A stretch of DNA of 64,000 nucleotides from an uncultured candidatus Brocadiaceae bacterium (lineage in GTDB: Bacteria; Planctomycetota; UBA1135; UBA2386): the NCBI GenBank assembly GCA_964418595.1, contig CAYQMF010000002.1:41723-105722 (forward strand), written 5' to 3'. Positions within the stretch are counted from its first letter, which is position 1. Each line of letters opens with the position of its first letter. Below the pieces are notes generated by a model that made no database searches, had not been told where the DNA came from, and saw only the letters and a list, made by a program, of their open reading frames with translations. The position numbers were made by a program, and so were the translations under genes. Positions 9,706-29,584 of this stretch are shown piece by piece.

Positions 9706-10434
9706 TCAGTTGACCACGGTCCAGCGCTGAGCGTCCTGGCCGGTGGTGTTGGAGGCGACGGTCGACGCCATCGTCGTGCCCGCGAAGGCGGCGTTGGGGT
9801 TCGGCCCGCGCGTCGTGCCCGTGTACAGGGTACCGGCGACGACGTTCGGGGCGGCCAGCACGTCGCCCGACTGGTTGACGAAGAAGGCGCGCTTGCCCGA
9901 GTTGCCGCGCGAGGCCGGCCACGCGTAGCAGCACCACAGCACCTCGGCCTGCGAGGCGTTGGGGTTGTTGGTCGCGCTCGCGCCACCCGTGGTCGCCTCC
10001 GGCATGAAGCCGGACGTGGCCGTGGGCAGGAACATCGCGAAGTAGTAGCCGGAGCGCAGGACGGCGCCACCGGTCGTGGTCGTGCCGCCCGCGAACGTGA
10101 CCGACGAGGTCGTGCCGAACGCGCCCGAGAGCACGGCCGGGGTGACGCGCGCGGTGGTCGACTGCGCACCGGTGCTCAGGCGGATACCGCGGGTGCCCGC
10201 CATCTCGCCGAAGTAGCCGTACTCGCCGGCGCCGTTGCCGTTGACGTCGATGGCGCCCGAGGCCTGCACCTGGGCCTGCGACGACGAGATGTTCTTCATC
10301 GTCGCGATAGCCGCCGACTCGTTCGCGTTGAGGCGAGCGCTCAGCAGATTGGGAATCGCGATGGACGCGATGATGGCGATGATCGCCACGACGATCATCA
10401 ATTCGATGAGGGTGAAGCCCTGTTGCTTCTTCAC
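9706..10434 (-). CDS. pilA: Type IV (pseudo)pilin, major-pilin candidate (242 aa)
   Basis: GTG start preceded by AAGGAG. N-terminus MKKQQG|FTLIELMIVVAIIAIIASIAIPNLLSARLNANESAAI is a class III signal with the G/F cleavage site, Glu5 and a hydrophobic alpha1 helix. The C-terminal half is Ser/Thr/Gly-rich (GTTSSVTFAGGTTTTGG, TTGGASATNNPNAS) and contains a CC pair (LWCCYAWP). Confidence 0.9.
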   Translation of the reverse strand: MKKQQGFTLIELMIVVAIIAIIASIAIPNLLSARLNANESAAIATMKNISSSQAQVQASGAIDVNGNGAGEYGYFGEMAGTRGIRLSTGAQSTTARVTPAVLSGAFGTTSSVTFAGGTTTTGGAVLRSGYYFAMFLPTATSGFMPEATTGGASATNNPNASQAEVLWCCYAWPASRGNSGKRAFFVNQSGDVLAAPNVVAGTLYTGTTRGPNPNAAFAGTTMASTVASNTTGQDAQRWTVVN

Positions 10435-11395: not shown

Positions 11396-12628
11396 TCAGC
11401 CGCCCGACAGCTTCTCCTGCAGCTTGAAGATCGGCAGGAACACGGCGAGCACGATGCCGCCGACGATCACGCCCATGACCGCGATCATGATCGGTTCGAT
11501 CATGGAGGTGAGACCCTTGACGTCGGCCTCGACTTGCTGGTCGTAGAACTCGGAGATCTTCTCGAGCAACGCGTCCAGTGCGCCGGACCGCTCGCCGATG
11601 CCGATCATCTTCGTCACCATCGGTGGGAAGACGTCGCTCTGACCCAGGGGCTCGGACAGCGATTCGCCGGCGCTGACGTTGGCCTTCGCCGCGTCGATCA
11701 CCTTCGAGATGACGAGGTTGCCGGAGGTCTCCGACACGATCTCCATCGCTGCCAGGATCGGCACACCGCTCTTGATCAGCGTCGAGAAGGTGCGGGCGAA
11801 CCGCGACAGGGCAACCTTCCGGAACAGCGGGCCGAACACCGGAAGCTTGAGGATCATCGCGTCCCACAGGTAGGCGCCCTTCGGCGTCTTCTTCCAGGCC
11901 CGCACCCCGAAGATCATGGCCGGGAACGAGAGCGCCATCAGCCACCACGAGTCGCGCATGAAGAACGCGAGGTCCATGATCGCGACCGTCAGCCCGGGGA
12001 GTTCCACCTCCAGCGAGTCGAAGACCGGCTTGAACGAGGGGACGATGCCCATCATCAGGAACATCGCGATACCGATGACCAGCACGAGCGAGATGACCGG
12101 GTAGGTCATCGCCGACTTGATCTCGGAGCGCAGATGTGCCGCGGCCTCCAGGTACTCGGAGAGCCGCGTCAGGATGACGTCGAGCTGACCCGACACCTCG
12201 CCGGCGCGGATCATGCTCACGTAGATGTCCGAGAAGACCTTGGGATGGACCTCCATCGACCTGGAGAGGTCGGCGCCCCCGCGGATGTCCTCCACCACCC
12301 TGGCCAGGCAGAAGCGGAAACCCGGGCTCTCCGCCTGATCCGCGAGGATGTCCAGGGCCTCCAGCATCGGGATGCCCGCGGACAGCATCGTGGAGAGCTG
12401 GCGGGTGAAGGTCTCGAGTTCGCCCTTCTTGACCGACGCCCTCTTGGCGACAGGGCGGGGCTTCGGTCCCTTGCGGAAGAGGGAACCCTTGGATTCGTCG
12501 ACCTGGAGCGGCGTCAGCCGGCGACGGCGCAGATCCGCCATCGCTTCGCTCTGCGTCGCCGCCTGAATGGTGCCGCTGACGGTGTTGCCAGTGGCGTCTT
12601 TCGCACGGTACTTGAACGTCGTCGTCAT
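11396..12628 (-). CDS. pilC: Type IV pilus / T2SS platform protein (PilC/GspF family)
   Basis: 410 aa with duplicated GspF-type domains (ELETFTRQLSTMLSAGIPMLEAL; LSRFARTFSTLIKSGVPILAAMEIV) and three TM segments. SD GGGGAG lies upstream. Confidence 0.92.
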   Translation of the reverse strand: MTTTFKYRAKDATGNTVSGTIQAATQSEAMADLRRRRLTPLQVDESKGSLFRKGPKPRPVAKRASVKKGELETFTRQLSTMLSAGIPMLEALDILADQAESPGFRFCLARVVEDIRGGADLSRSMEVHPKVFSDIYVSMIRAGEVSGQLDVILTRLSEYLEAAAHLRSEIKSAMTYPVISLVLVIGIAMFLMMGIVPSFKPVFDSLEVELPGLTVAIMDLAFFMRDSWWLMALSFPAMIFGVRAWKKTPKGAYLWDAMILKLPVFGPLFRKVALSRFARTFSTLIKSGVPILAAMEIVSETSGNLVISKVIDAAKANVSAGESLSEPLGQSDVFPPMVTKMIGIGERSGALDALLEKISEFYDQQVEADVKGLTSMIEPIMIAVMGVIVGGIVLAVFLPIFKLQEKLSGG

Positions 12629-12641: not shown

Positions 12642-14354
12642 TCAGTCCGGCATGGTGACGCGCTCGACCTCTTCGATCGTGGTCACGCCCCGCATCACGT
12701 TTAGCAACCCGCAGCGGCGCAGCGTGAGCATGCCCTCCGCGAGCGCCGCCTGTTTCAACTCCGCCGCCGCACGTCGTTCGACCACCATGCGCTTGATGGT
12801 CTCGGACATGCGCATGGTCTCGAGCACCGCGAACCGGCCCTTGTAGCCGGTGCCACACCGCGGGCAGCCGACGGCCTTGTGCACCTGGAAGTCGGGCTTC
12901 GCCAGATCCTCCTCGGAGAACCCCAGCCGCAGGTACACCTCGCGCGGATAAGTCGTCTCGACCTTGCACGATGCGCACAGCTTGCGCGCCAGTCGCTGCG
13001 CGCAGATCAAGGTCGTGGCGCTCGCGATGTTGAACGGATCCATCCCCATGTCCACCATGCGGACGATGGTGCCCACCGCGTCGTTGGTGTGCAGGGTGCT
13101 CAGCACCAGGTGTCCGGTGAGTGCGGCCTTCACCGCGATCTCGAGCGTCTCCTGGTCGCGGATCTCGCCGAGCAGGATGACGTCGGGATCCTGACGCAGG
13201 ATCGAGCGCAGGGCGCCGGCAAAGGTCAGGCCGCGCTTGGGGTTCACCGGCACCTGATTGATCCCCTCGATCGTGTACTCGACGGGATCCTCGACGGTGA
13301 CCAGGTTGATCTCGGGATCCGCGATGTGCCGCACCGCCGAGTAGAGCGTCGTCGACTTCCCTGACCCCGTCGGTCCGGTGACGAGGATCATCCCGTAGGG
13401 ACGCTCCACCGCCCACTTGTAGTCCTCCATGCTCCGGGCCTCGAACCCGAGCGCGGCGATGTCGACCGCGAGGTTCGACGAGTCGAGGATCCGGAAGACG
13501 GTCTTCTCGCCCCACACCACCGGCAGAATCGACACGCGGAAGTCGATCGCCTTGTTGCCGAGCCGCATCTGGAACTTGCCGTCCTGCGGCCGCTGCTTCT
13601 CGGCGATGTCCAGCTTGGACATGATCTTGATGCGCGACGTGACGGTGTTCTGCATCCGCTTGGGCAGCGTCATCGCCTCGATCAGGCAGCCGTCACGGCG
13701 GTAGCGCACGATCATGCGCTTCTCGAAGGGCTCGAAGTGGATGTCGCTGGCGCCCTGCGAAACGCCGTCGGCGATGATCTTGTTCACCATCTTCACCACC
13801 GGCGACGATTCGTCGCTGATGGCATTGAGGTCCATGGCGTCGTCCTCGGCCGACTCCTCGCGAAGTTCGAGGTCGGAGTCGTCGAAGGCACCGAGGATGT
13901 CGCCTACGGCCTCTTCGTCGGATTTGTAGGCGACGCCCAGGGCCTGATCGATGGCCTCCTCCGTCGTGATCACGAGGCGGAGCTGACAGCCCGTGATGAC
14001 ACGGATGTCATCGAGTTGCAGCACGTCGAACGGATCGACGACCGCCAGCGTGAGCATGTTGCCGATCCGATCGATCGGGAAGATCCGGCGCTCCTTCACC
14101 ACGTCCGCTCCGACGACCTGCAGCACCTCCGGGTTGAACTTCACGCGCTGCAGGTTGATCGGTGGCACGTTCGCGACACGGGCGAGCAGCGCGAGGATCT
14201 CGTCGGCCGAACACAGGCCCTTCTTGGCGACCACGCTCGTGAGCGATGACTTGGACTGCTGCGCCTCCTGCAGGAGGGCTGCGCCCGCGTCCGGCGCGAT
14301 CTTCCCCGACTTCTCGAGGATGACGCGCAGCTTCTTGTCGAGCTGCAGGGTCAT
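12642..14354 (-). CDS. pilB: Type IV pilus assembly ATPase (PilB/GspE family)
   Basis: 570 aa with Walker A GPTGSGKSTT, Asp box, Walker B VILLGEIRD, His box TGHLVLSTLHTN and a tetracysteine motif CASC..CPRCGGTGYKGR-like (CASCKVE, CPRCGTGYKGRFAV). The N-terminus carries a GspE_N-type domain. Confidence 0.95.
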   Translation of the reverse strand: MTLQLDKKLRVILEKSGKIAPDAGAALLQEAQQSKSSLTSVVAKKGLCSADEILALLARVANVPPINLQRVKFNPEVLQVVGADVVKERRIFPIDRIGNMLTLAVVDPFDVLQLDDIRVITGCQLRLVITTEEAIDQALGVAYKSDEEAVGDILGAFDDSDLELREESAEDDAMDLNAISDESSPVVKMVNKIIADGVSQGASDIHFEPFEKRMIVRYRRDGCLIEAMTLPKRMQNTVTSRIKIMSKLDIAEKQRPQDGKFQMRLGNKAIDFRVSILPVVWGEKTVFRILDSSNLAVDIAALGFEARSMEDYKWAVERPYGMILVTGPTGSGKSTTLYSAVRHIADPEINLVTVEDPVEYTIEGINQVPVNPKRGLTFAGALRSILRQDPDVILLGEIRDQETLEIAVKAALTGHLVLSTLHTNDAVGTIVRMVDMGMDPFNIASATTLICAQRLARKLCASCKVETTYPREVYLRLGFSEEDLAKPDFQVHKAVGCPRCGTGYKGRFAVLETMRMSETIKRMVVERRAAAELKQAALAEGMLTLRRCGLLNVMRGVTTIEEVERVTMPD

Positions 14355-15448
14355 CGCTTCTTGCCGACCAGAGCCGATGTCGCGTTCGGACGCTGCGCCA
14401 GCCGCTCGAGATCCGAGAGGTCGGTGGAGTGGTTGATGGCATCCTCCCAGGTGATGTGGCCGCCCCGGAACAGGTCGTAGAGCGACTGGTTCATCGTCCG
14501 CATTCCGAACTGGCCACCGGTCTGCACGATCGATGCGATCTGGTGCGCCTTGTTCTCGCGGACGAGCGCGCGCACGGCCGGCGTACAGATCAGGATCTCC
14601 GATGCCAAAGCCCGGCCGCGACCATGCGCGCGCGGCACGAGTTGCTGGCAGATCACCGCCTGTAGGGCGAACGACATCATCGTGCGGATCTGCTGCTGCT
14701 GATGTGCCGGGAAGACGTCGACGACGCGGTTGACGGTCTGCACGACATCCGAGGTGTGCAGCGTGCCGAACGTCAGGTGACCGGTCTCGGCAAGGGTCAG
14801 CGCCGCCTCGATCGTCTCGAGGTCACGCATCTCGCCCACCAGGACGACGTCGGGGTCCTGGCGGACGACCGAGCGCAGCGCAGCGCCGAACCCGTGTGTA
14901 TCCGAGCCGACCTCGCGCTGGTTGATGAGGCAGCTCTTGTTGCCGTGCAGGAACTCGATCGGGTCCTCGATGGTGACGATGTGGCCCTGCTGCGACTGGT
15001 TGATGTGGTCGACCAGTGCCGCCAGGGTCGTGGACTTGCCGGAGCCCGTCGCGCCGGTGCACAGCACGAGACCGCGGTTCAGGGCGCAGATGTCCTCGCA
15101 GACCTTCCGGGGCAGACCCACCTGCTCGAAGTTGAAGACTTCGACGGGGATGATGCGAAGCACCGCGGCGATCGTGCCGCGCTGGATGAACGCGTTGGTC
15201 CGGAAGCGACCGAGGTTGGCGACGCCGAACGAGAAGTCCAGCTCCCAGTGCTTCTCGAACTTCGCGATCTGGTCGGTCGACATCACCGAGTAGATCAGCT
15301 TCTTGCTGACCTCCGGGGTGAGCGGCGGATAGTCGGTGTCGATCAGCCTGCCATCGACGCGCACCTTGGCAGGGCCGCCGACCGAGAGATGAAGGTCAGA
15401 GCCCCCCTGCTGCACCAGCAGGTTGAGCAGTTCTTCCATCGAAACCAT
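14351..15448 (-). CDS. pilT: Twitching-motility retraction ATPase PilT
   Basis: 365 aa: GGSDLHLSVG, Walker A GATGSGKSTT, VVLVGEMRD, TGHLTFGTLHTS and a PilT-type PAVRALVRENKAHQI motif (AIRNLIRE-like). Its stop overlaps the pilB ATG as ATGA. Confidence 0.93.
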   Translation of the reverse strand: MVSMEELLNLLVQQGGSDLHLSVGGPAKVRVDGRLIDTDYPPLTPEVSKKLIYSVMSTDQIAKFEKHWELDFSFGVANLGRFRTNAFIQRGTIAAVLRIIPVEVFNFEQVGLPRKVCEDICALNRGLVLCTGATGSGKSTTLAALVDHINQSQQGHIVTIEDPIEFLHGNKSCLINQREVGSDTHGFGAALRSVVRQDPDVVLVGEMRDLETIEAALTLAETGHLTFGTLHTSDVVQTVNRVVDVFPAHQQQQIRTMMSFALQAVICQQLVPRAHGRGRALASEILICTPAVRALVRENKAHQIASIVQTGGQFGMRTMNQSLYDLFRGGHITWEDAINHSTDLSDLERLAQRPNATSALVGKKR

Positions 15449-15713: not shown

Positions 15714-17744
15714 CTAGTGCTTGGCGGCTTCGACCTCGCGGTGGTGCGCCGCGACGATCTCCTGCTGGATGTTGCCCGGTACCATCTCGAGGTGGGACGG
15801 GCGCATGGTGAAGGACCCCTCACCTGCGGTGATCGACCGCAGATGTGTCGCGTAGTCCTGCATCTCCTTGAGCGGCACCTCGGCCCGGATGATCTGGATG
15901 CCCTCCTGCGTCTCCATGCCCGACATGCGGCCACGGCTCGTGGACAGGTTGCCTGCCACCTCGCCCGTGAAGCGCTCGGGGATCGAGATCTCGACCGTCA
16001 TGTACGGCTCGAGCAGGATGGGGCGCGCCTTGGTGAAGGCGTCCGCGATCGCGCGTTCGCCGGCGATCTGGAACGAGATCTGGTCCGAGTCGACGTCGTG
16101 GAACTTGCCGTCGTAGACCTCGACCTGCAGGTCCTGCACGACGCAGCCCGCGAGCGGCCCGTGCGCGAGGAACTTGCGAACGCCCTTCTCGATCTCCGGG
16201 ATGAACTGCTTGGGGATGGAGCCGCCGACGACGGCGTTGACGAACTCGAATCCGGCGCCCCGCTCGAGCGGCGCAATCCGGAGGTAGACCTCGCCGAACT
16301 GGCCGCGCCCGCCACTTTGCTTCTTGTGCCTGTGGTGCCCGTCGGCCTTGGCCGTGATCGTCTCCTTGTAGGCGATCCGCGGCGCGTGCGTGGTGGTGCC
16401 GATGCCATAACGACGTTTGAGCCGAGCCAGATGCACGTCCAGATGCAGCGGGCTCATGCCTGCGATCACCAACTCGCCGGTCAGTTCGTCGCGACGGATG
16501 TGGAGGGTCGGATCCTCGGTGTGGAGCTTCTCGATGCCCTGCCCGATCTTCTGCTCGTCCCCGCGCGACGCCGGTTGCACCGCGAGCGAATACACCGGCG
16601 GCGGGAAGCTCGGCGTCGGAAAGCGGAGGGGAGCTCCGTCCGCGGTGACCGTGTCGCCGTGGTTGAGCGATTCGATCTTCCCCACGCAGAAGAGATCGCC
16701 GACGCTCACCTCGTCCGCCGGCTTGGGTTCGTGGCCCTTCATCACGAGCAGCCCGCCCACCTTCTCGTGCTTCTCGGTGCGGACGTTGAGGAAACCGGCG
16801 TCCGCCTTCACATGCCCGCGCAGACAGCGCAGGTAGCTCATCCGCCCGACGTACGGGTCGACCACGACACGGTAGACGAAGGCCGCGAATGGCCCCTCGT
16901 AGGTGGGCTCGACCAGCTGATCGAAAACGTCGGTGCCCGGCTTCGCCGCGCCGCGCGGACCGAACGACAGGGGCGATGGCAGCACGCCCCCGATCACATC
17001 CAGGAACTCGGCGACGCCGAGGAGCTTGGGCGGTGAGACGACGAACAGGGGCACGATCCGCCCCTTGGCGACCGCACCCGGCAGCTTCGCGCGAACCACC
17101 TGGGGATCGAGTGTGCCCGACTCGAGGAACGCCTCCAGCAGGACGTCGTCCGACTCGGCAACGCGCTCGGTGATCCGCTCCGCGTAGCCCGCTGCCGCCG
17201 GCCCCTGCCCGTCGAGCACCTTGTGCACCGCCGAAAACGATGCGCCGGAGTGGTCGGGGTACGTGAACGGCACGACGATGTCGCCGAACACACCCTGCAG
17301 TTCGGCCAGCGTGGCCTCGAAGTTCGCCGTCTCGGCCTCCATGTGCGTGACCACGATGGCCCGCCCGACGCCTGCGGTCGTCGCCTCCTGCCACAGCCTG
17401 CGCGCGTGAAACGAGAGACCCGCGGCCGCGTTGACGCACAGGATGCCTGTCTCTACGACGCGCAGCGCGGAGATCGCATCGCCCAGGAAGTCCTGGTGTC
17501 CGGGCGTGTCGACCATGTTCAGGTTGATGCCGCCGACCGGGAAGCCAAAGAGGTGGGAGCACAACGTGTGCTTCCGCTCCTTCTCCTCCGCCTCCTGGTT
17601 GCCGAAGCTGGTTCCCGCGGCAGAGTCCCCGTGCCGCGACGCGACCTTCGTCGCGAACGCGATCGCATCGATGAGGGCCGTCTTGCCTGAATACGAGTGT
17701 CCGAAGAGAGCGACGTTACGAAGCGTTTCCGAACGGGCGGTCAT
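15714..17744 (-). CDS. Elongation factor G paralog with degenerate G1 and G4 nucleotide-binding motifs
   Basis: ORF 15714..17759; the ATG at 17744 (MTARSETLRN) is preferred over the GTG at 17759. All EF-G domains are recognisable (DTPGHQDF; HKKQSGGRGQFGEV; VGGSIPKQFIPEIEKG; LEPYMTVEISIPERFTGEVAGNLSTSRGRM; LRSITAGEGSFTM). However, G1 reads GHSYSGKT (canonical AHxDxGKT) and G4 reads THME (canonical NKxD; plus 17337-17348, reverse complement ACG CAC ATG GAG). Confidence 0.85.
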   Translation of the reverse strand: MTARSETLRNVALFGHSYSGKTALIDAIAFATKVASRHGDSAAGTSFGNQEAEEKERKHTLCSHLFGFPVGGINLNMVDTPGHQDFLGDAISALRVVETGILCVNAAAGLSFHARRLWQEATTAGVGRAIVVTHMEAETANFEATLAELQGVFGDIVVPFTYPDHSGASFSAVHKVLDGQGPAAAGYAERITERVAESDDVLLEAFLESGTLDPQVVRAKLPGAVAKGRIVPLFVVSPPKLLGVAEFLDVIGGVLPSPLSFGPRGAAKPGTDVFDQLVEPTYEGPFAAFVYRVVVDPYVGRMSYLRCLRGHVKADAGFLNVRTEKHEKVGGLLVMKGHEPKPADEVSVGDLFCVGKIESLNHGDTVTADGAPLRFPTPSFPPPVYSLAVQPASRGDEQKIGQGIEKLHTEDPTLHIRRDELTGELVIAGMSPLHLDVHLARLKRRYGIGTTTHAPRIAYKETITAKADGHHRHKKQSGGRGQFGEVYLRIAPLERGAGFEFVNAVVGGSIPKQFIPEIEKGVRKFLAHGPLAGCVVQDLQVEVYDGKFHDVDSDQISFQIAGERAIADAFTKARPILLEPYMTVEISIPERFTGEVAGNLSTSRGRMSGMETQEGIQIIRAEVPLKEMQDYATHLRSITAGEGSFTMRPSHLEMVPGNIQQEIVAAHHREVEAAKH

Positions 17745-17843
17745 GCAAGTCCTTTCCACTCAGGTGGGCGGCGCAGCCTACCGTAGAGGTTCAGCCCTCG
17801 CACCCGTTTCCTCTGCCCGCTCGGCAAGTAGAAAGCGGTCCCA

Positions 17844-17895
17844 TCCTGGTGACCCGGCCAGGTGATCCAGCCAGGTGATCCCGCCAGGTGATGGC
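17844..17895. repeat. Four tandem 13-bp repeats in the OmpA-like / EF-G-like intergenic region
   Basis: tcctggtgacccg | gccaggtgatcca | gccaggtgatccc | gccaggtgatggc. In - strand sense the units read (G/T)GGATCACCTGGC, and each carries a CCWGG core. Confidence 0.9.
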
Positions 17896-17927
17896 GATCG
17901 GAGACCCTACGGACGCCCTCGCGCCGA

Positions 17928-18611
17928 TCAGCGCGGCTCGCCGACGACGATTTCGACGCGGCGATTCTTGGACTTGGCCGCGTCGCTGTTGCCGGAGAGC
18001 TTCGGGTCGTAGGGTCCGAAGCCCACGACGATGACCTGGTCCGCGGGCATCCCGCACTTGTCGACCAGGTAGCCCGCGACGACATCGGCGCGCTCCGCCG
18101 AGAGGTGGCGGTTGCTCCGAAATCGCCCCTTCGTCTTGTTGATCGGATCCGTGTCGGTGTGGCCCTCCACGTAGATCCGGCGGTCGGGGTAACGGCGCTT
18201 CAGCACCGCGGCGACGCGCTCGAGGACGGAGCCGGCAGCCGGCTTGAGGTCTATGCTTCCCGAGGCGAAGGTCACCTCGTTCTCGATCCCGATCGAGACG
18301 TTGCCGCGGCGGTAGCCGACGTCGAGATCCTTGAGTTCGTCCTGCACCTGCTGGATCTCGTCCTTCTTGGTGCCGGCGGCCTCCGTGGTCCCCCCGGCGA
18401 GGCGGTCGCGAAGGGCTTGCGCCTCGTCCCGCGCCGCCTTCTCACGACGCTCGGCGTCCTTCGACGCGGCGCGCAGTTGCGCATTGGAGTTCTCGAGCTG
18501 GCTGATCTTGAGATCGCGCTCGTGCAGCATCTGCTGGTAGGTGGTGGTGCAGCCCGCGAACGCGAGCAGGCAGGGAGCCGCGAGGCGGCACAGCGTGGAT
18601 CGAAGCGACAT
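17928..18611 (-). CDS. OmpA/MotB-family peptidoglycan-binding lipoprotein with N-terminal coiled coil
   Basis: Signal peptide plus lipobox (LLAFAGC). A coiled-coil-like segment follows (LKISQLENSNAQLRAASKDAERREKAARDEAQALRDRL). The OmpA_C motifs are present: IYVEGHTDTDPI, SNRHLSAERADVVAGYL, NRRVEIVV. Confidence 0.88.
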   Translation of the reverse strand: MSLRSTLCRLAAPCLLAFAGCTTTYQQMLHERDLKISQLENSNAQLRAASKDAERREKAARDEAQALRDRLAGGTTEAAGTKKDEIQQVQDELKDLDVGYRRGNVSIGIENEVTFASGSIDLKPAAGSVLERVAAVLKRRYPDRRIYVEGHTDTDPINKTKGRFRSNRHLSAERADVVAGYLVDKCGMPADQVIVVGFGPYDPKLSGNSDAAKSKNRRVEIVVGEPR

Positions 18612-18643
18612 GTGTCCTCCCAGGTGTGTGTGTTATGGGCTGG

Positions 18644-19588
18644 CTAGGGGCTGCGCCCCCGCTTCACGATGACGACGAGCAAGAGAACTGCGACGATGGC
18701 CAGCACGAGCAGCAGGAGCGGACTCGCCGGGTTGGCGCGCTGCCAGGTTGGCCAGGTGACGAACAAGAACTCCTGGACGAACTCGCCGACGAACATCGAC
18801 AGGAGTGCGCCGGCGACCAGGAACGGACCGAAACAGATGAACAGATCGCCCGTCACGAGACGGTGAGCGACGCCGACGATCGCGCCGAGCGCGCAGGCGA
18901 GGAAGAACGTCAGCAGGACGTCCTGCCAGCCGACGAATGCGCCGATCGCAGCCATCAGCTTCACATCGCCGAAGCCCATGGCTTCTTGACGGAACAGCCA
19001 CGACGACACGGCTCGCACCGTCCAGGTGAGCGCCGCACCGGCGCTCATCCCAGCCAGACTGAAGAGCAGTGCGCGCGCCTCCGACGAGACACCGCGGATC
19101 CCGAGATCCCCGTAGGCTGCCGGGATCACCAGCGACCCCAGCACGCCGAGGACCATGGCCGGGATCGTCAGGCGATCGGGTAGCAACCGATGATCGATGT
19201 CGATGAACGTGCACGCGATCAGCGCACTGACGAAGATGGCGTGCAGGACGAAGGCTCCGGTCCCCGGCCACGCGGGGGGCCAGGCCGCGAGACCCGATGG
19301 CGAGAAGACCGCGAGCAGCCAGAAGACCAACGCCGTGATCGCCTCGACAAGCGGATAGCGCCAGGCGATGCGACCGCCGCAGCACGCGGCCTTGCCCCGC
19401 AGGACGACCCAACTCACGACGGGGATGTTCCAGCGGGCCGGGATCGGCGCACGGCAGTGCGGGCAATGCGAGCGTCGACCACCGCTCGTGAACGTGCCGT
19501 GCGGCAAGCGCCAGATGACGACGTTCAGGAAGGAGCCGATGCAAGCGCCAAGCGCCGCGGCGATCGCCTGCCCAGCCAAGTCTGTCAT
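18644..19588 (-). CDS. pilD: Prepilin peptidase (A24 family, PilD/GspO)
   Basis: ORF 18644..19636 trimmed to ATG 19588 (MTDLAGQAIAA). It has GSFLNVVIWRLP, the zinc-type CPHCRAP...CCGGRI motif, and catalytic-Asp contexts FIDIDHRLLPD and GFGDVKLMAAIGAFVGW. Confidence 0.92.
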   Translation of the reverse strand: MTDLAGQAIAAALGACIGSFLNVVIWRLPHGTFTSGGRRSHCPHCRAPIPARWNIPVVSWVVLRGKAACCGGRIAWRYPLVEAITALVFWLLAVFSPSGLAAWPPAWPGTGAFVLHAIFVSALIACTFIDIDHRLLPDRLTIPAMVLGVLGSLVIPAAYGDLGIRGVSSEARALLFSLAGMSAGAALTWTVRAVSSWLFRQEAMGFGDVKLMAAIGAFVGWQDVLLTFFLACALGAIVGVAHRLVTGDLFICFGPFLVAGALLSMFVGEFVQEFLFVTWPTWQRANPASPLLLLVLAIVAVLLLVVIVKRGRSP

Positions 19589-19774
19589 ACCCGCCCGCCA
19601 AGATTCCGTACCTCTGCGCCAACGATCGCCCGACACCCGCAGGTCGAGACCCCGCGCGGCCCTGGTCCTGACCGACCATTCGAGCCACCCGTGGTTTGGC
19701 GCGACGCGTGGAAGTTAGCGCGCGGGCGCCGGGTGTAAAGGCCGCGCGCCGGGCGGAGGCTGCTTTCTCGCGCC

Positions 19775-21658
19775 CTACCGCACGACGAGCGCGATCGCCG
19801 CGACCGACGGCAACTCGTCGAGATCCCGCGCGACATCGGCGCGCAGCACGAATCGGACGAACCCGCCCGCGGGGATCTCGGACACGGACTCGGCAGGTTG
19901 CGCCGGGGACCAGGCCTCGCGACGGTCGTCGATCCGGGTCGGATCGATCGGATGCGCAGGTGCGGTCTGGACCAGGACCTGGATCGCTCCGCGCGCCCCC
20001 TTCACTTCGACGCCGAAGGGGCCTCGGTGCCACGGCGGCACGCGCTGCCATTCGGTGACGGCCTCCGCACGGGCCGGCTCCTTGCCCGCCCACCCGGTCG
20101 TCATCCGGACCTGGACCGGGGTCCCGCGCTGGATCGCACCTTTCAGCTCGTGCTCCCCAGCTACGACCGTCCGGGGGGGCACCCGGCCGTCGAGGTGGAT
20201 TCCGCCCCCTGCGACCAAGGCCAGCGCCGGCCCAAGGCTCGGGTCACCCTCATGCACGTGAGCTACTCGACCCCCGATACGGATGTCGCCCCCGGCGATC
20301 AGCGTGCAACCGGCGACGCCGGCCAGTTCGGTCTCCACGAGCCAACTTCCGAGGGTGGGGTCCCACGGCGGCCCCATCGCCGTCTCCAGAAGCAGCTCGC
20401 CGTCGATGCGGATGGCGCCCGAGACCAACAGGCGCAGCGGGCCAGGCACGCCGGCGATCGTCAGCCGGACACCCTCGGGGATCTCGAGCGAGGCAAGGCT
20501 CACTACGGCCCCCTGTGCGTCGAACCGCGCGGGTGGGCTCCACCGGACCGAGGCGGTGGGGCGCAACGGACCGAGTTCTCCTTCGCCGGCCGCAAGCCGA
20601 ACCAGCGGCGTGATGCGGTTTCCGTCGCGAACCTCGAAGCCAGGGCGCGCCGGGTCGACCGGTGTGAGGACCGGCTGGTCCGTGGCCGCGACCTCGAACA
20701 CACGCGCGTGCGAGCCGGGCTGAACGTGGACCTGCAACCGCTGCCCGCCAAAGCGGGCCGCCGATCGGATCGGACGGCCGCGGTAGTCGACCAGGGCGTG
20801 CGGGCCTTCCTGGGCGATCAAGAGGTCGACGTTGTCATCGGCCTGCAGCGGCGGATCGGCGCTCAATTGCAGCGAGACGGTGCTCCCGAAGAACCGATCC
20901 GAAGCGTCCGGCACGATGGTGGCGCTGCGCACCGATACGCGCCGCAACGCCTGCGCCACGCCATCCCACGCATGCACGACGAACGCCGCGGGGGTCACGG
21001 ACGGTGGCGATGGCGGCAGCGTGAAGTGCAACCGGAGTTCGCCGGTCTCCATCAGCGCGTCGAGCCGACGCGCTGGGTCGAGGGTGAATGGCTCGTCCCC
21101 CATGCCCACCGGCAGGAGCGGATGCGCGTAGTCGTCGCGGCCGGAGAGCCCGACGGTCCGGAACGGCCGTCGCACGGCGTGCTCGAGAACCCGCCCGTCT
21201 CGGCTCCGCACCGCGTTCGTCTGGGGGTACCCGGCGATCTCCAGCGTGTAGTCCGAGTCCGGTCGCAGCGTCCCGTCGCTCAGGCTCGGGGTGATCGGAG
21301 GACGGGGACGAACGGACAGGGACTGGGAACCGACGTCGATCCCGGCCGGCGCGACAGCATGACCCTGGGAGTCGACAACGCGTACGGTGTCCGGGGTCAC
21401 CGAAAGAGGCTCGATCGGCTTCGAGAAGTAGACGGTGATCTCCTGGTTCAGGATGACTCGTTCGCCGTCGGGCTTGATCCGCACCGCGGTGAACCCCATG
21501 GCGCCTGACGATCGGCGCTCCTCGCACCCGGCGAAGACGGCCACGGTGACCGCAATGGGGATTCGTAGGTGCCAGGACACGGGCGAGTGGACGGTAACGT
21601 CCAGCAGGAGCCGCCGCTCCCTGGCCTTTCTGGCTGGCACTGGCGGCGGCCAGCTCAT
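19775..21658 (-). CDS. Lipoprotein with Ig-like (SbsA-like) domains and a beta-solenoid-like C-terminal half; member of the giant-lipoprotein family
   Basis: 627-aa ORF with lipobox VAVFAGC. It has an Ig-like module ITVYFSKPIEPLSVTPDTVRVVD and the family segment VVSLASLEIPEGVRLTIAGVPGPLRLLVSGAIRIDGELLL. The C-terminus is FVRFVLRADV..VAAIALVVR. The exact start is uncertain (long n-region). Confidence 0.8.
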   Translation of the reverse strand: MSWPPPVPARKARERRLLLDVTVHSPVSWHLRIPIAVTVAVFAGCEERRSSGAMGFTAVRIKPDGERVILNQEITVYFSKPIEPLSVTPDTVRVVDSQGHAVAPAGIDVGSQSLSVRPRPPITPSLSDGTLRPDSDYTLEIAGYPQTNAVRSRDGRVLEHAVRRPFRTVGLSGRDDYAHPLLPVGMGDEPFTLDPARRLDALMETGELRLHFTLPPSPPSVTPAAFVVHAWDGVAQALRRVSVRSATIVPDASDRFFGSTVSLQLSADPPLQADDNVDLLIAQEGPHALVDYRGRPIRSAARFGGQRLQVHVQPGSHARVFEVAATDQPVLTPVDPARPGFEVRDGNRITPLVRLAAGEGELGPLRPTASVRWSPPARFDAQGAVVSLASLEIPEGVRLTIAGVPGPLRLLVSGAIRIDGELLLETAMGPPWDPTLGSWLVETELAGVAGCTLIAGGDIRIGGRVAHVHEGDPSLGPALALVAGGGIHLDGRVPPRTVVAGEHELKGAIQRGTPVQVRMTTGWAGKEPARAEAVTEWQRVPPWHRGPFGVEVKGARGAIQVLVQTAPAHPIDPTRIDDRREAWSPAQPAESVSEIPAGGFVRFVLRADVARDLDELPSVAAIALVVR

Positions 21659-21706
21659 GAGCCGGAACGCTCTCGCGGGAGCGCTCCGGCCGCGGCGTGC
21701 ACCGGC

Positions 21707-24700
21707 TTACTGCGGCGCGCGGACCCGATACACGAGCGCCAGACTCCGGAGGCTGGGGCGCTTCGGCGAGTTCGCGGCGATGTCGTTCTCCATGATCAAC
21801 CGGAAGTTCAGGAACTGCGGCAGGAGCCCGTTCAACGGGTTGCGCAGCGTGCTGATCTGCTCGAGGTCGACGTACGGAGTCATCCCCTCCACGGGCACCC
21901 GGGGGTCGCTGCTCGCGCCGGGATTCGCCATCGCGTAGCGGAACGCTTCACACGCATAGAACGGGTTCAGCAGGTTCTGCCGGTTCATCGAGCGGTTCTC
22001 GGTCAGACGGTTCCAGACGCCGGGACGGGTGATCGTCTCCACGCCCCGCACCTCGAGGGCGATCGACGTTCCCACCGGCTGGCTCTCGAGCGGCGGATCC
22101 ATGACCGACACGACGTCGACGGCGCGGCGCGTGGACACACCGGAGAAGTCAGGCACGCCGGCCCGGTCGTTGAGGCCCGTCCAGGGTACCGAGATGCTCG
22201 CGGGGTCGAGATCGTGCTGGTTCGGCTTCTGCGTATCGAAGAACCCGAAGGTCACCATGGACACGCGGCGTACGAAGTCGGCCTGCGCCCAGTACAGGTG
22301 GTCGTTGTATCCAGGCACCGTCGTCAAGCCGTAGATGATGTCGGTGGAGCCGGCGTCCAGGATGATCGTCCCGCGCGCCACGGGCTCACGCACCGGATCG
22401 ATGAGAACCTGGCTGCCGACGCTGTTCACGGACCCGGCGCTCATCACGGTGAAGCTCGGGTAGTCGAACCCGGCGCACGACAGCGCGGGCCCGGCCAGGT
22501 TGTACTGGCGCGCCCAGTGTGGCACTGGCGATGCCGGCGGCGGCGGGACCTTGCCCAGGTTGAAGTAACCCCAGTACGGAGACTGGTGCCCGTTGATACC
22601 GACGTAGGCGATGTGCATGCGGTTGACGCCGCGCGCCGCGCCGTTCGCCGGATCGTCCGGCCACAGGTTGAACTCCATCAGGAGCGGCAACGCGATCGGA
22701 TCCATGTCGCGCTGCCGGTCGCCGTTGAAGTCGCCGACGTCAGCGACGTGGATGCCTGACGCGGTGACAAAGGTCTGGCCGTTGACCACCGGGAACACGT
22801 TCTCCTCCCACGGCGATGACACGCTGGTCGTGTTGTCCTTGGGCGGGAACGTACTCTGGGTCGGATCTTGCGCGCCGCCGAGGCCGGTCGCGATCTGCAA
22901 CTGGGTGTCCCAGGACGCCAGCCGTTGGTCGCGCCAGGTGAAGGTGCGCGTGAACTTGGGATACGGCGTGTAGGTGTTCTCGGTCGACGAGCGGAACGCG
23001 TCGCCAGGGTTCACCGTGTACGCCTTGTCCTTCACGACCTCGACCATCACCCCGTTGAGCGGGTTGGCGGTGAACGTCGTGGACAGGCCCGAGAGCAGGC
23101 TCGAGCAGTCGACGCGACAGTTCGGCGCGCCTGGGCCGGCCGGGTAGGTGAGGTTCGCACGGAGATCAGGCCGCTTGGCAGCGTGCCCCATCCGCAGCGT
23201 GTAGCGGTCGAACTGATCGAAGAGGACGGCGCGGTTGTTCCACGGCGCCCAGTACATCTGCTCGACGTCGATCATCATGGTGTCCGCGTCGTGGTACCCG
23301 AGGCCGAAGTCGTCCTCACGGTACGTGACCATCTCGCGCACACCGCGCGGGTTGTGCGGACCACCGATGCCACCGTAGTCCAGGGGCACTGCCGGAGGTT
23401 GGAACGGGTTCGGCGGCGGCGCCGGCGCCGTCGACTGCGTCATGGATGGAGTCGTGTACAGCGGTCCCCAGATGAGGTGGCTCGGCGGGCGAGGCGGCAT
23501 GGCCGCCGCGTCGCCTGGGTCGAAACAATCGCCCTTGTCACCGCGCGTGATGCTGGGCAGCGTCCGCGCATCGGCGATCTTGCTGAACCGGCTGACGGGC
23601 GCACTCCACAGCCGCCCCTCGCGGAGCTCGAACTGCCCGAAGAAGTCCGGCGACCCTGGCTTGGTGCCATCCTCGTCCGTGGCCTCGAATCGGATGACCC
23701 GCTGCCCGACCAGGTTCTCCGGCGAGGCGGGGTCGAGCGTATAGCCGATGGAGAAGCTCTGGCGCTGCTCGGTCCCGACGCGGCGGTCGAAGATGTCGAG
23801 GCCGTTGCCGGAGAGATCACGTGGGCTGAGCGCATCGCCCATCACGTGCAGCCAGTACTGCTCGGTCTGACTCGCGACGTGGTTGTGGCCCATCGGCAGG
23901 TTCAGCCGCAGCGTGGTACCGTCCTGGCTCACGTCCTCGAGGTTGGTAGCGATCATCGACAGCCCTGCAACCTTGGGCTCGCGCAGCATGGTGGTCAGCG
24001 CGGCATCGGGGAGATAGCGGTTGCCGATCAGCACGTTGCCCGACCGGTCGACCGTGCTCATGTCCAGCGGCTCGCTGAACTTCACGGCGACGGAAGCGAT
24101 CGGGTTGATGCGCGTTCCGGGCGCGATCGGCAGCCGGGTCTGTGGATCGATGCGCGGCGTCGCCGGCTCGAACTGCACGAACTCGTACCGACGCGTCGAG
24201 TCCGACACGGCGAAGGAGCCGTTCGTGTAGGGCAGGTTCTCGTAGTAGTGCACGCGAACCGAGCAGTCCGCGCCGAGCGGGAGCGAACTCGCCTGGAACG
24301 CGGCGATCGCGCCGGATGCCCCGACCACCTGCAGGTGCGTGACCCTCACGCGAACCGTGTCCGCGTTGCCGCCGTCGGTGCCGTCCGCGGCCTTGCCGAG
24401 GTTGGGGTTGTTGGCGAGCGTGCCGCTGTTCGACACGTCCATGTTCATCAGGATCTCGGCGCGGATGCGGACCGGACCTGCCGCCGTCTGGACCGTCTGC
24501 GACAGGAAATCACCGGAGCGCAGGCGCGCGACGGTCGGAACTTCGCCGGGTCCGAGCGGCAGACCCTCCGTGACGCCCAGCGGGCCATCCACGAAAGGCA
24601 CGCGGCCGCGGAGGGCGACCTTCGCCCCGCGCTTGTTCAGCGTGACCTCGCGGTTCGCCACGTCGATGCTCTGGATGCCCATCGGCACGTCCGCCACGAT

Positions 24701-25657
24701 GGAGGGAGGATCGATGTCGAGCAGCGAACCCACCCGACCGTCCTGGGCGTTCCCGGTCCGGAAGTCCCGGATGACCGAGGGCAGGCCGGTGCGATCCCGG
24801 CCATTGAGTTGCGGCACGGAGTCGGCCTTGACCCCGAGGCTCTCGCCGCTGATCTGCACCGGAATGGCGACGCGGATGTTCGCCACCACGTTGGTCGCGC
24901 TGATGGGCAGGCCGGAGCTCGGGCGCACGCCGGAAGCCTCGCCGCCGATGATCGTGGGATCGACGACGATCGAGTCGCCCTGCACCACGACGCGGTACGG
25001 CAGTGCCCGGAAGGCCTGCTGTGGGCTCACGGTCGCCGGGTCGTCGACGATCTCGAGGACCTGCAAGGCGGTCGGATTCGCGGCGAAGAAGCTGCGGTCG
25101 ACCGACAGCGTGCGTGTGAACTTGAGTTTCATCGCGGCATTGCGCGGAACCACGGGAATCGGCTGAGCCGTGGTGTTCTGACCGCTGAACGCCGCCGCGA
25201 CCGGCACGAGACTGCCGGTCGCCCGGCTCAGTGCCGCGTCGAAGCGTGCCTTCTCGTCCGCGTTCTGGTCGTCCCACAGGATGACGAGTTCCTCGTGCCC
25301 GACGTTGACGTCGAAGGCGCGGAACAGGAAGTCCGCATTCGGGTTCTCTTCGCCCAGCGCGTCGAACAACGACTGGGACTCGACCCGCGGGTCGATCACG
25401 ACATCCGTCGCAACCCGCACGGGCACGCGATTGGTCACATCACGTCGCTGGCCGTTGCGTGCGTCGACGCGTCGGTACGCGTAGAGGTCGACCAGGCGCC
25501 CGAACTCGACCGACGAGAGCCGAAGTTCCGAAGAGGTCCCGCCGGGCCCATCGTTCCGGGTACGGCCATCGCAGGCCGCGACCAGCGCGGCGGCGGCAAA
25601 GCAGCCCAACAGCGTTCGCGTTGGTTTACGCATAGGATTCATCACGCGTCTTTCCAT
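21707..25657 (-). CDS. Very large secreted lipoprotein (about 1310 aa), no recognisable catalytic motif
   Basis: 1316-aa ORF. Plausible starts are at 25657, 25642 and 25633 (MRKPTRTLLGCFAAAALVAAC, signal plus lipobox). An Ig-like module is present (SVAVKFSEPLDMSTVDRSGNV). The C-terminal module FLNFRLIMEND..LRSLALVYRVRAPQ resembles that of the neighbouring paralogs. Composition is natural along the whole length. Confidence 0.85.
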   Translation of the reverse strand: MERRVMNPMRKPTRTLLGCFAAAALVAACDGRTRNDGPGGTSSELRLSSVEFGRLVDLYAYRRVDARNGQRRDVTNRVPVRVATDVVIDPRVESQSLFDALGEENPNADFLFRAFDVNVGHEELVILWDDQNADEKARFDAALSRATGSLVPVAAAFSGQNTTAQPIPVVPRNAAMKLKFTRTLSVDRSFFAANPTALQVLEIVDDPATVSPQQAFRALPYRVVVQGDSIVVDPTIIGGEASGVRPSSGLPISATNVVANIRVAIPVQISGESLGVKADSVPQLNGRDRTGLPSVIRDFRTGNAQDGRVGSLLDIDPPSIVADVPMGIQSIDVANREVTLNKRGAKVALRGRVPFVDGPLGVTEGLPLGPGEVPTVARLRSGDFLSQTVQTAAGPVRIRAEILMNMDVSNSGTLANNPNLGKAADGTDGGNADTVRVRVTHLQVVGASGAIAAFQASSLPLGADCSVRVHYYENLPYTNGSFAVSDSTRRYEFVQFEPATPRIDPQTRLPIAPGTRINPIASVAVKFSEPLDMSTVDRSGNVLIGNRYLPDAALTTMLREPKVAGLSMIATNLEDVSQDGTTLRLNLPMGHNHVASQTEQYWLHVMGDALSPRDLSGNGLDIFDRRVGTEQRQSFSIGYTLDPASPENLVGQRVIRFEATDEDGTKPGSPDFFGQFELREGRLWSAPVSRFSKIADARTLPSITRGDKGDCFDPGDAAAMPPRPPSHLIWGPLYTTPSMTQSTAPAPPPNPFQPPAVPLDYGGIGGPHNPRGVREMVTYREDDFGLGYHDADTMMIDVEQMYWAPWNNRAVLFDQFDRYTLRMGHAAKRPDLRANLTYPAGPGAPNCRVDCSSLLSGLSTTFTANPLNGVMVEVVKDKAYTVNPGDAFRSSTENTYTPYPKFTRTFTWRDQRLASWDTQLQIATGLGGAQDPTQSTFPPKDNTTSVSSPWEENVFPVVNGQTFVTASGIHVADVGDFNGDRQRDMDPIALPLLMEFNLWPDDPANGAARGVNRMHIAYVGINGHQSPYWGYFNLGKVPPPPASPVPHWARQYNLAGPALSCAGFDYPSFTVMSAGSVNSVGSQVLIDPVREPVARGTIILDAGSTDIIYGLTTVPGYNDHLYWAQADFVRRVSMVTFGFFDTQKPNQHDLDPASISVPWTGLNDRAGVPDFSGVSTRRAVDVVSVMDPPLESQPVGTSIALEVRGVETITRPGVWNRLTENRSMNRQNLLNPFYACEAFRYAMANPGASSDPRVPVEGMTPYVDLEQISTLRNPLNGLLPQFLNFRLIMENDIAANSPKRPSLRSLALVYRVRAPQ

Positions 25658-25673
25658 GAGTGTGGGTCCGGGA

Positions 25674-29177: not shown

Positions 29178-29209
29178 CGTCGGAAAGCAGGGTCGTCGGA
29201 AAGCAGGGT
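29178..29209. repeat. Perfect 16-bp tandem duplication abutting the start codon of 25674..29177
   Basis: cgtcggaaagcagggt occurs twice (29178-29193 and 29194-29209). In mRNA sense this reads ACCCUGCUUUCCGACG ACCCUGCUUUCCGACG AUG. No Shine-Dalgarno sequence is visible. Confidence 0.9.
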
Positions 29210-29584
29210 GACGCTGGGCACGGACCCGCGCGGTCAGCTCCGCCTCGGAGCTTGGGGCACGCGTCGGCCGGGCCAAACGCCAGGGTTGGAAGTCAGCTTG
29301 GGGTCGCGAGATAGGCCCCACCGGAGGCTTCTTTCGTCGCACCAGGGGGGAGAGCTTGCTCAGAAGTCTACCGTCCTCCCGAACACGGTCATCGGCGAAG
29401 TTCGGAAGGCACGGCGTTGCGGTCGACCCGGCGGGGGCAACCACGGGTCAGGGCGCTTTCTTCAAGTCGCGTGCCGCGCCGAGACCGCACGCGACCCAGT
29501 CGTAACCGCCTTTCCTAGCTAAGGATACGGCGAGAGATGGGCAGCGGGTCGCGCACCGGACGCACTTGCCCGTGCGATCCCGCA

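Follow-up and report, generated by a model that had tools for sequence, protein, structure and literature searches.

The window (the whole 64-kb stretch of DNA analysed) contains a gene encoding an EF-G paralog that lies between pilT on one side and the genes for an OmpA-like protein and PilD on the other, as the earlier note had described. The surrounding genes form a genuine type IVa pilus array (Table 1). The end of pilT and the start of the pilB ORF share 4 nt. Beyond pilD lie three large genes, the first two of which (627 and 1316 aa) encode proteins with lipobox-like N-termini and are kept upstream of PilD in relatives, whereas the 1256-aa gene is not.

Table 1. The EF-G paralog, its sequence motifs and the neighbouring pilus genes (positions are those of the window)
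Feature	Residues (aa)	Position	Strand	Remarks
Type IVa pilin		9706..10434	-	N-terminus KKQQGFTLIELMIVVAII; N_methyl; Myxococcus-type PilA model
PilC platform protein		11396..12628	-	T2SSF x2; GspF/PilC models
PilB extension ATPase		12642..14354	-	Pfam T2SSE + MshEN; TIGR02538 666.7, just below cutoff 675.65
PilT retraction ATPase (PilT/PilU family)		14351..15448	-	TIGR01420 476 against cutoff 319
EF-G paralog gene		15714..17744	-	676 aa, five domains; EFG II / EF-G2 class
Domain IV loop II, translocation tip, YDGKFHDVDSD	544-554	16083..16115	-	Aligns to S. aureus EF-G YDGSYHDVDSS
Domain IV loop I, HHRHKKQSGGRGQF	470-483	16296..16337	-	Basic EFG II-type decoding-centre loop, invariant block
G5 position, SPPK, not S/T-A-x-K	237-240 (S237-P238-P239-K240)	17025..17036	-	From alignment to S. 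aureus EF-G
Acidic helix of G' subdomain, AESDDVLLEAFLE	196-208	17121..17159	-	L7/L12-stalk contact region of EF-G (PMC3150367)
G4 position, THME, not NKxD	133-136	17337..17348	-	DNA is ACG CAC ATG GAG
G3 / switch II, DTPGHQDF	79-86	17487..17510	-	Catalytic His83 kept
Switch I / G2, ERKHTL	56-61	17562..17579	-	RGITI lost, Mg-coordinating Thr60 retained
G1 / P-loop, GHSYSGKT	15-22	17679..17702	-	Gly-first P-loop and L24 are EFG II signature (PMC3150367)
13-bp tandem repeat x3.5		17848..17892		In 183-bp OmpA-EFG spacer, upstream of EF-G gene
OmpA/MotB-like peptidoglycan-binding lipoprotein		17928..18611	-	Pfam OmpA; NCBIfam YiaD/MotB-like models all sub-cutoff; lipobox AFAGC
Prepilin peptidase PilD		18644..19636	-	Pfam A24_N_bact + Peptidase_A24; of all neighbours the one most constantly found beside the EF-G gene
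Three large genes		19775..29444	-	627, 1316 and 1256 aa; weak Big_5 matches in two

The EF-G paralog gene gave a stop-free translation of 676 aa. The mechanical ORF begins at a GTG located 15 nt upstream of 17744, and alignment with homologs favoured the ATG at 17744 as the start. The GC3 of 0.89 and the presence of homologs reaching down to 39% identity indicate that the ORF is no chance feature. All five EF-G parts were matched by Pfam models (GTP_EFTU, EF-G_D2, EFG_III, EFG_IV and EFG_C), confirming the five-domain layout proposed previously. Among NCBIfam models, the EF-G-like NF009381 (PRK12740.1-5 derived) and NF009891, which come from PRK12740/PRK13351, were both passed (712.6 against a cutoff of 583 and 620.6 against 597, respectively). 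The canonical EF-G equivalog TIGR00484 (481.3 against 659.4) and the equivalog named EF-G2, NF009377 (505.6 against 890), scored below cutoff. Identification as a Tet(M)/Tet(O) ribosomal protection protein (tet_protect, 230 against 775), as RF3 (prfC models, 91 against 473 and 84 against 467) or as BipA or LepA (model scores far under the cutoffs) was rejected. The same applies to spdEFG1, which is defined by a three-residue KDG insertion in switch I (PMC3150367); this insertion is missing from the paralog, residues 37-61 of which align gap-free to switch I of S. aureus EF-G.

The paralog carries the signature residues listed for EFG II in Tables 1/2 of Margus et al. (2011; PMC3150367), a class that includes T. 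thermophilus EF-G-2 (1WDT), M. smegmatis EF-G2 (9K0Z) and B. thetaiotaomicron EF-G2 (8DMF). Like the other members it has five domains folded as in EF-G, with a short G', and has lost RGITI; the P-loop starts with G15 and ends with L24, K356 occupies the domain II position that is Lys or Arg in EFG II and Gly in EFG I (it aligns with the VGLK Gly of S. aureus EF-G), and two conserved Lys residues lie in loop I of domain IV, which is basic (xRHKKQSGG). Together with the failure of TIGR00484, these residues classify the protein, as judged from its sequence, as an accessory EF-G of the EFG II (EF-G2) class and not as canonical fusA. It shares with canonical EF-G, spdEFG1 and spdEFG2 the overall architecture, DTPGH with its catalytic His, the Mg-binding Thr of switch I and the domain IV tip HDVDS, and its best PDB sequence matches were the S. 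aureus and T. thermophilus EF-G proteins (approximately 400–410 bits). Unlike canonical EF-G, it lacks AHxDxGKT, RGITI, NKxD and SAx. That it should be the sole, housekeeping EF-G of the organism, with lineage-typical motif drift, is scarcely credible. The G4 sequence THx[DE] is lineage-typical and no further EF-G was found within the 64-kb window, as such an explanation would predict, but the TIGR00484 score and the EFG II signature residues speak against it, the gene context is ompA-like and pilT rather than the str operon (rpsL-rpsG-tuf), and the protein diverges faster than its neighbours (39–72% identity among relatives compared with 59–81% for PilT at the same loci), consistent with accessory status. 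In addition, among 305 genomes EFG II was always accompanied by another EF-G and a lone EF-G was always EFG I, with Planctomycetes using spdEFG1 plus spdEFG2 (PMC3150367).

The diverged G1, switch I and G4 sequences and the retained DTPGHQDF motif of the earlier note were all found at their places. GKT, T60 and DTPGH are conserved among the 120 closest homologs, with Thr60 invariant and a family switch I consensus of ERK(Q/H)TL. Presence of Thr in switch I is a soft difference from usual EFG II, in which Ser replaces Thr at the Mg-binding G2 position in 76% of cases, a delta-proteobacterial T/S variant also being listed (PMC3150367). Retention of the DxPGH catalytic His likewise sets the paralog apart from most EFG II, as this residue was present in only 6 of 150 EFG II cluster representatives and missing from 144; M. 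smegmatis EF-G2 has a Tyr at this position and is without ribosome-dependent GTPase activity. Since the phosphate-binding and catalytic set is complete (GKT, Thr60 and DTPGH with its His), the paralog is probably a working NTPase switch.

TH-x-D/E is lineage-typical at G4, with T in 117, H in 119, D in 111 and E in nine of the 120 closest homologs (D/E in 120/120). The previously described loss of the Asn, Lys and Asp of NKxD is too strong a reading, as Asp is kept in most homologs and its replacement by Glu in the window protein is conservative. This retention of the Asp in most of the clade counts against altered base specificity. NKxD at G4 and SAx at G5 have been reported as conserved in EFG II (PMC3150367), and the THME and SPPK sequences of the paralog differ from both. 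However, erosion of G motifs is common across EFG II, with NK, NR, TK, TR, TH, NH, SK, NQ and NG all found before xD in the 150 cluster representatives. Obg, a housekeeping GTPase also encoded in the window, reads TKVE at G4, indicating that N-to-T and D-to-E changes are tolerated in this lineage, and in view of both observations THME alone is no proof of lost GTP binding. At G5, a position whose replacement was absent from the earlier description, SAx has become S/C/N-P in the clade. A conserved Pro (P238, at least 90% conserved) takes the place of the Ala that recognises guanine O6 through its backbone NH. As both base-reading motifs are rebuilt, guanine recognition is probably weakened or altered.

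GTPase families other than EF-G are generally known in which G4 departs from NKxD and the P-loop and switch regions are intact, as in the paralog. YchF/Ola1, with NxxE at G4, prefers ATP, whereas dynamin (TKxD) and AIG1/GIMAP proteins (T-[H/R/K]-x-[D/E]) are genuine GTPases that have kept GTP specificity. The T-H-x-E of the window subclade is similar to motifs of the YchF type (Glu) as well as to those of the GIMAP type. Because YchF changed specificity and dynamin and GIMAP kept GTP, the G4 motif alone cannot decide which nucleotide is used.

Conservation was also assessed for the elements predicted to contact the ribosome. In the acidic G' helix A196 and D200 are invariant, and conservation is 90% or higher at E197, D199 and L207. 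Domain IV loop I was found in every full-length sequence among the 150 EFG II representatives, with HHRHKKQSGG invariant and K474/K475 corresponding to the signature Lys pair (K471/K472 in PMC3150367). In loop II, residues G546, K547, H549, V551, D552, S553 and D554 are invariant, and within the pil-linked clade domain IV is the most conserved region (0.67 identity compared with 0.33 for the G5 region). An AF2 model of the paralog (pLDDT 88.5) was matched by Foldseek to B. thetaiotaomicron EF-G2 (8dmf, TM 0.91), to M. smegmatis EF-G2 (9k0z, TM 0.88) and to ribosome-bound EF-G (TM 0.88–0.90), with a range of 0.86–0.91 over EF-G and EF-G2 structures. With the phosphate-binding and catalytic elements, the acidic G' helix and both tip loops intact, docking of the paralog in the factor-binding site of the ribosome, and activity there, are most likely preserved.

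These data bear on a second proposal of the earlier note, that a translation-factor fold had been recruited to the filament system. In such a reading the protein would have left translation and would act directly in the type IV pilus machine by switching or NTP hydrolysis, for example together with PilD, the OmpA-like anchor or the motor ATPases. Its conserved central place in the T4aP core block, the loss of both guanine-reading motifs and the linkage to PilD and OmpA, which is the tightest of the block, would fit such a role. However, residues of use only on the ribosome (loops I and II and the acidic L7/L12-contact helix) are the most conserved of the protein, which argues against a fold recruited off the ribosome, the AF2 model fits onto EF-G in its ribosome-bound form (TM 0.88–0.91), and EF-G2 length and domain order are kept with no membrane or pilus-interaction domain added. 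We regard recruitment of this kind as highly unlikely.

The gene order PilD-OmpA-EFG-PilT-PilB-PilC was found again in at least 20 other Planctomycetota genomes (MAGs), indicating that the position within the pilus array, previously noted as unusual, is not accidental and that this is not an EF-G2 that merely happens to sit here. The order extends to the pilin at loci L001–L006, L008–L010, L024, L031, L034, L037 and L040, with pilT not detected in L037, and the pil-linked arrangement is also present in L084 (P0208), L085 (P0121) and L086 (P0033). This plainly refutes the possibility that orthologs are never associated with pil genes, and the suspicion that the THME type is lineage-typical was borne out. 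Linkage to pil genes was observed for 20 of the 22 assessable loci of the clade with a T/S-first G4 (L084–L086 come on top of these) and for 0 of 55 loci with NKxD (Fisher p = 1.6e-16, phylogeny not corrected for). The pil-linked proteins cluster together in one NJ tree, which suggests that the adjacency of the EF-G and pil genes arose once and means that fewer observations are independent than the linkage statistics imply. THxD does not strictly mark pil linkage and was rejected as an indicator of it, since P0172 has THVD and is without any pil linkage and L008–L010 are linked with TK/TRxD at G4. As a lead only, Saltatorellus-like strains, candidate cultured relatives, encode PilB and PilT.

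In L007, L014 and P0158 the PilD-EFG adjacency is kept and the adjacent pilTBC genes are lost, with OmpA remaining in between in L007 and L014. In L019 the EF-G gene alone is inverted, in place, indicating that it can be transcribed as a unit separate from its neighbours. This separability, together with the flanking spacers of 183 and 265 bp that are the largest of the block, the grouping of the linked proteins in one tree and the variability of G4 and frequent absence of the catalytic His across EFG II (144/150), would be expected if the paralog were a syntenic passenger, namely a stress or slow-translation factor of the usual EF-G2 type that came to its place by historical accident and stayed there because the block rarely rearranges, with neutral erosion of G4 and G5 and no functional tie to the pilus. 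We nevertheless consider this explanation rather unlikely. The gene holds its place across EF-G identities that fall from 83% to 39%, even though it outpaces its neighbours in divergence, the rebuilt pocket tracks linkage almost perfectly (20/22 compared with 0/55), and the PilD-EFG adjacency outlasts loss of pilTBC. Furthermore, the clade keeps or restores T60 and DTPGH, the full catalytic set, and has an invariant TH, a pattern of purifying selection rather than decay.

The explanation we favour, and consider reasonably probable, is that the paralog is an accessory ribosome-docking EFG II factor with a rebuilt base pocket, whose gene is inherited, and probably also regulated, together with those of the type IVa pilus machinery. 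Such a factor would not be the housekeeping translocase; it would dock by means of the L7/L12-contacting G' helix, the basic loop I and the tip loop II, and would switch as an NTPase with rebuilt G4 (TH-x-D/E) and G5 (S/C/N-P) motifs. The lineage with the rebuilt pocket would have held the gene between pilD/ompA and pilT-pilB-pilC over deep divergence, and the protein may act as an alternative or regulatory translocation factor. The analysis establishes the identity of the protein, its fold, the state of its motifs, its distribution over the clade and its synteny; we infer ribosome binding, NTPase competence and altered base specificity, and likewise any functional coupling to pili. It is improbable, although conceivable, that the paralog is a dedicated part of the filament system which uses a non-GTP NTP or has much altered GTP affinity and couples a subset of ribosomes to T4P biogenesis, for example by driving or pacing translation of the very abundant pilin and the giant lipoproteins encoded alongside, or by reporting the energy state of the cell between ribosome and PilB/PilT motors. 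Hfq provides a precedent for a functional tie between the T4P motor and a protein associated with RNA or translation: in cyanobacteria, interaction and localisation experiments showed that it docks on PilB1, at the pilus base. The EF-G paralog differs in being an unrelated protein whose tie to the pilus comes solely through conserved gene order.

Although EF-G2 paralogs occur widely, a role has been assigned to only a few, for example in mycobacteria, where EF-G2 functions under stress, and in Bacteroides, where it translocates slowly and independently of GTP during starvation. The pil-linked subgroup is distinct in that the catalytic machinery is kept, both guanine-reading motifs are rewritten and the gene has a fixed address in a pilus cluster, and it offers a concrete case in which to address both the role of an accessory EF-G and the nucleotide that it uses. 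Literature searches found no link between EF-G and pili and no paper describing association with a pil cluster, and the EFG II literature found described neither a Planctomycete EFG II subgroup nor pilus linkage. The EFG II class itself is known; what is new is a subgroup of it with synteny to the pil cluster. Should the pilus link prove functional, translation would be coupled to a surface machine in a novel manner, and if it does not, conservation of the EFG II G motifs is still much looser than stated in the 2011 report.

The sequences flanking the gene were analysed for regulatory elements. A promoter and terminator scan of positions 11000–20000 was uninformative, as it detected neither sigma-70-like sites nor a gene-strand terminator, and an Rfam scan of the window gave no match near the EF-G paralog gene. 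The 13-bp tandem repeat is a possible regulatory array for the EF-G gene, and showed no conservation in relatives when the flanking spacers were aligned. Alignment of the two spacers across relatives likewise revealed no conserved RNA or leader, the only item to emerge being a short CCGATAG motif upstream of pilT.

The gene encoding the EF-G paralog lies within a real type IVa pilus cluster. Its ORF translates to a 676-aa protein without internal stop, and its GC content by codon position (GC1 0.68, GC2 0.44, GC3 0.89, in a window of ~69% GC) follows the pattern of a real gene. Pfam domains occur in the order GTP_EFTU, EF-G_D2, EFG_III, EFG_IV and EFG_C. An AlphaFold2 model with 31 homologs as input was confident (pLDDT 88.5, pTM 0.82) and superposed on ribosome-bound EF-G structures with TM 0.88–0.90; values for B. 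thetaiotaomicron EF-G2 (8dmf), M. smegmatis EF-G2 (9k0z) and T. thermophilus EF-G-2 (1wdt) were 0.91, 0.88 and 0.86, respectively. An earlier note had correctly described an EF-G paralog with diverged motifs in a pilus cluster, and the four motifs it quoted are all where it placed them.

Features of the window (minus strand) and motifs of the EF-G paralog
Feature	Position	Remarks
pilM, pilN-like, pilO, secretin pilQ	39854-45068
RNase E/G	37358-39397
rplU	36891-37211
obg	35533-36528
Second PilT/PilU paralog	34279-35400	ATPase family, adjoins obg
PDZ-domain protein	32823-34196
coaX	32058-32813
pyrB	29614-30972
Two giant proteins	21707-29444	1316 aa (lipobox) and 1256 aa (weak Big_5)
627-aa lipoprotein	19775-21658	weak Big_5 match
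PilD	18644-19636
OmpA/MotB-like lipoprotein	17928-18611
EF-G paralog	15714-17744
PilT	14351-15448
PilB	12642-14354
PilC	11396-12628
TPR protein	10493-11386
Classical type IVa pilin	9706-10434
GT2	8554-9573
GT1	7385-8557
GHSYSGKT	aa 15-22	G1 (P-loop)
ERKHTL	aa 56-61	switch I
DTPGHQDF	aa 79-86	switch II
THME	aa 133-136	G4; DNA 17348-17337, ACG CAC ATG GAG

The pilT and pilB ORFs share 4 nt, gaps of 13 and 32 nt separate pilB from pilC and pilD from ompA, and the block's longest spacers are the two that flank the EF-G gene (183 and 265 nt). Immediately upstream of this gene, the 183-bp spacer carries 3.5 copies (90% match) of a 13-bp tandem repeat, GGTGATCCAGCCA, at 17848-17892, which was not seen in the relatives' aligned spacers. 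A minus-strand CCGATAG motif (15512-15518) precedes the pilT start by about 70 nt, and does so at a similar distance in the related loci L001, L002, L003, L004, L006 and L010, where the spacers are otherwise unalignable; a promoter or operator element is one possibility, which would give pilT its own control region. In L003 the EFG-pilT spacer (12026-12866) is enlarged to about 840 bp, with recurring GC-rich units and a stretch of N that is masked or gapped. Of the three large genes upstream of pilD (19775-29444), two have lipobox-like N-termini; Pfam matches hardly anything in them beyond weak Big_5 in two of the three. Relatives keep the genes of 627 and 1316 aa upstream of pilD too, at identities as low as about 23–43%.

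Scanning of one genome per GTDB species gave 80 loci, which were searched by tblastn with the window's neighbours. A collinear PilD-OmpA-EFG-PilT-PilB-PilC-(TPR)-pilin(s)-GT2-GT1 block, often preceded by giant proteins, was present in L001-L006, L008 and L010, and the available parts of L009, L011 and L012, on shorter contigs, match it. The core PilD-OmpA-EFG-PilT-PilB-PilC-pilin was found in L024, L031, L034, L037 and L040 (the last on a truncated contig), with EF-G identity of only 39–41%; in L037 pilT was not detected in this block by tblastn. In L019 an intact collinear block on one strand (PilD, OmpA, PilT, PilB, PilC, two pilins) contains the EF-G gene alone inverted at the same position (10001-11986), whilst L007 and L014 keep PilD-OmpA-EFG, with pilTBC absent within 10 kb. 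Independent look-ups revealed a full pil cluster around a 47%-identical TKTD protein (L085) and another on an 8.07-Mb contig (L086). Among THVD proteins, the one in L084 lies in an EFG-PilT-PilB arrangement, that in L083 has PilD immediately upstream but no pilTBC, and that in L081 has no pil neighbours. The other 55 assessable loci, mostly labelled Phycisphaerae and Gammaproteobacteria, have an NKxD-type G4 (mostly NK/NR, some NH/NQ/NG/ND) and a SAK-type G5, all without a pil neighbour. The neighbourhood that the earlier note thought unusual is thus conserved in relatives, with pil linkage at 20 of 22 assessable loci with a T/S-first G4 versus 0 of these 55, although the Fisher p of 1.6e-16 overstates independence because the linked proteins form one group in a neighbour-joining tree and the adjacency probably arose once.

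The paralog missed the canonical EF-G equivalog TIGR00484 (481 vs cutoff 659) and passed two EF-G-like models derived from PRK12740/PRK13351, NF009381 (712.6 vs 583) and NF009891 (620.6 vs 597). Tet-type, RF3, BipA and LepA identities were rejected on model scores far under cutoffs, and spdEFG1 on absence of its marker, a three-residue switch I insertion. EFG II is defined by RGITI loss and a few signature residues (Margus et al. 2011, PMC3150367). The paralog has Gly first (G15) and Leu last (L24) in the P-loop, Lys (K356) in domain II where EFG I has Gly, and the two Lys of basic domain IV loop I in an invariant HHRHKKQSGG block; the sole missing mark is the soft Ser-for-Thr feature, Thr60 being found instead. 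The same marks make every one of the 150 best cluster representatives of an exhaustive HMMER search EFG II-like, and these data together place the paralog, by sequence, in the EFG II/EF-G2 class. According to the same paper (PMC3150367), a lone EF-G is always EFG I, EFG II never occurs without another EF-G in the genome, and Planctomycetes depend on spdEFG1 and spdEFG2. Among relatives at the same loci the EF-G gene evolves faster than its neighbours (39–72% identity vs 59–81% for PilT), which fits an accessory gene. That the paralog serves as the sole housekeeping EF-G is very improbable, being opposed by its model scores, its signature residues, its context and its rate of evolution.

Among the 120 closest homologs (55–100% identity; every one with a source name from Planctomycetota), G4 begins with T in 117 and has H second in 119, then any residue, then D (111) or E (9). 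The TH pair is hence typical of the lineage, and Glu occurs in a minority that belongs to the window's own subclade (among individually inspected sequences, the window and L001). Practically no variation is seen in GKT, the Mg-binding Thr60 or DTPGH. G5 is also replaced, a change the earlier note had missed: canonical S/T-A-x-K is S-P-P-K in the paralog and C/N/S-P across its clade, with a conserved Pro in place of the Ala whose backbone NH normally reads guanine O6. As both base-reading motifs are rebuilt whilst phosphate and catalytic elements are retained, the pocket suggests a change in base recognition and not an inactive switch. This bears out part of the earlier proposal of altered or lost guanine recognition, which is tempered because residues before xD in G4 are very heterogeneous in EFG II representatives (NK, NR, TK, TR, TH, NH, SK, NQ, NG), because the window's Obg has TKVE rather than NKxD (about 35674-35685) with canonical-looking G1, G2, G3 and G5 and that of L013 has TKID, and because T-[H/R/K]-x-[D/E] is found in bona fide GTPases, e.g. 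dynamin and GIMAP. NxxE in YchF accompanies ATP preference. In L013 (955-3122) Obg adjoins a second PilT (PilT2), as in the window. The main alternative reading, rather unlikely, is that the paralog is carried along as a syntenic passenger and that its motifs show the drift typical of EFG II. New here is the deep conservation of its place in the pilus cluster, together with the clade-specific rewriting of G4 and G5.

The 2011 description of EFG II (PMC3150367) is tighter on G motifs than the 150 representatives (P0121-P0269), of which only six keep the catalytic His of DxPGH, replaced elsewhere by Tyr, Phe, Ala, Ser, Gly, Asp or Leu. M. smegmatis EF-G2 has Tyr for this His and lacks ribosome-dependent GTPase, and H88Y in EF-G1 abolishes GTPase. 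Within EFG II it is the retention of the catalytic set that makes the paralog unusual, rather than its odd G4.

Among the domains, conservation is highest in domain IV (mean identity 0.67 among pil-linked proteins and 0.59 against other EFG II; G5 region 0.33 and 0.25). Its loops I (HHRHKKQSGGRGQF) and II (YDGKFHDVDSD) are invariant, their aligned counterparts in S. aureus EF-G being KQSGGRGQYG and YDGSYHDVDSS, and the G' acidic helix (AESDDVLLEAFLE), a region that contacts L7/L12 in EF-G (PMC3150367), is conserved. These elements are of importance on the ribosome alone, so the simplest inference is that the paralog binds ribosomes, and the pattern disfavours a direct, non-ribosomal role in the pilus machine, akin to the recruitment to the filament system raised previously, which we regard as improbable. 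With moderate confidence we favour an accessory, ribosome-binding NTPase of the EF-G2 class whose base pocket has been remodelled, kept by one Planctomycetota lineage as a fixed and probably co-regulated part of its type IVa pilus cluster. A literature search found no report of any EF-G paralog linked to pilus genes. According to a Saltatorellota preprint, classical Planctomycetes appear without PilT, while Saltatorellota encode PilB and PilT; this gives no more than a lead to the lineage concerned.

Elsewhere in the window, the aspartate carbamoyltransferase catalytic chain encoded by pyrB has OTCace_N and OTCace domains and a C-terminal PyrI_C metal-binding domain (aa 359-402), suggesting a fused catalytic and regulatory chain. 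A bacterial small SRP RNA (69.5 bits) followed by two tRNA genes lies at 54239-54661 on the minus strand.
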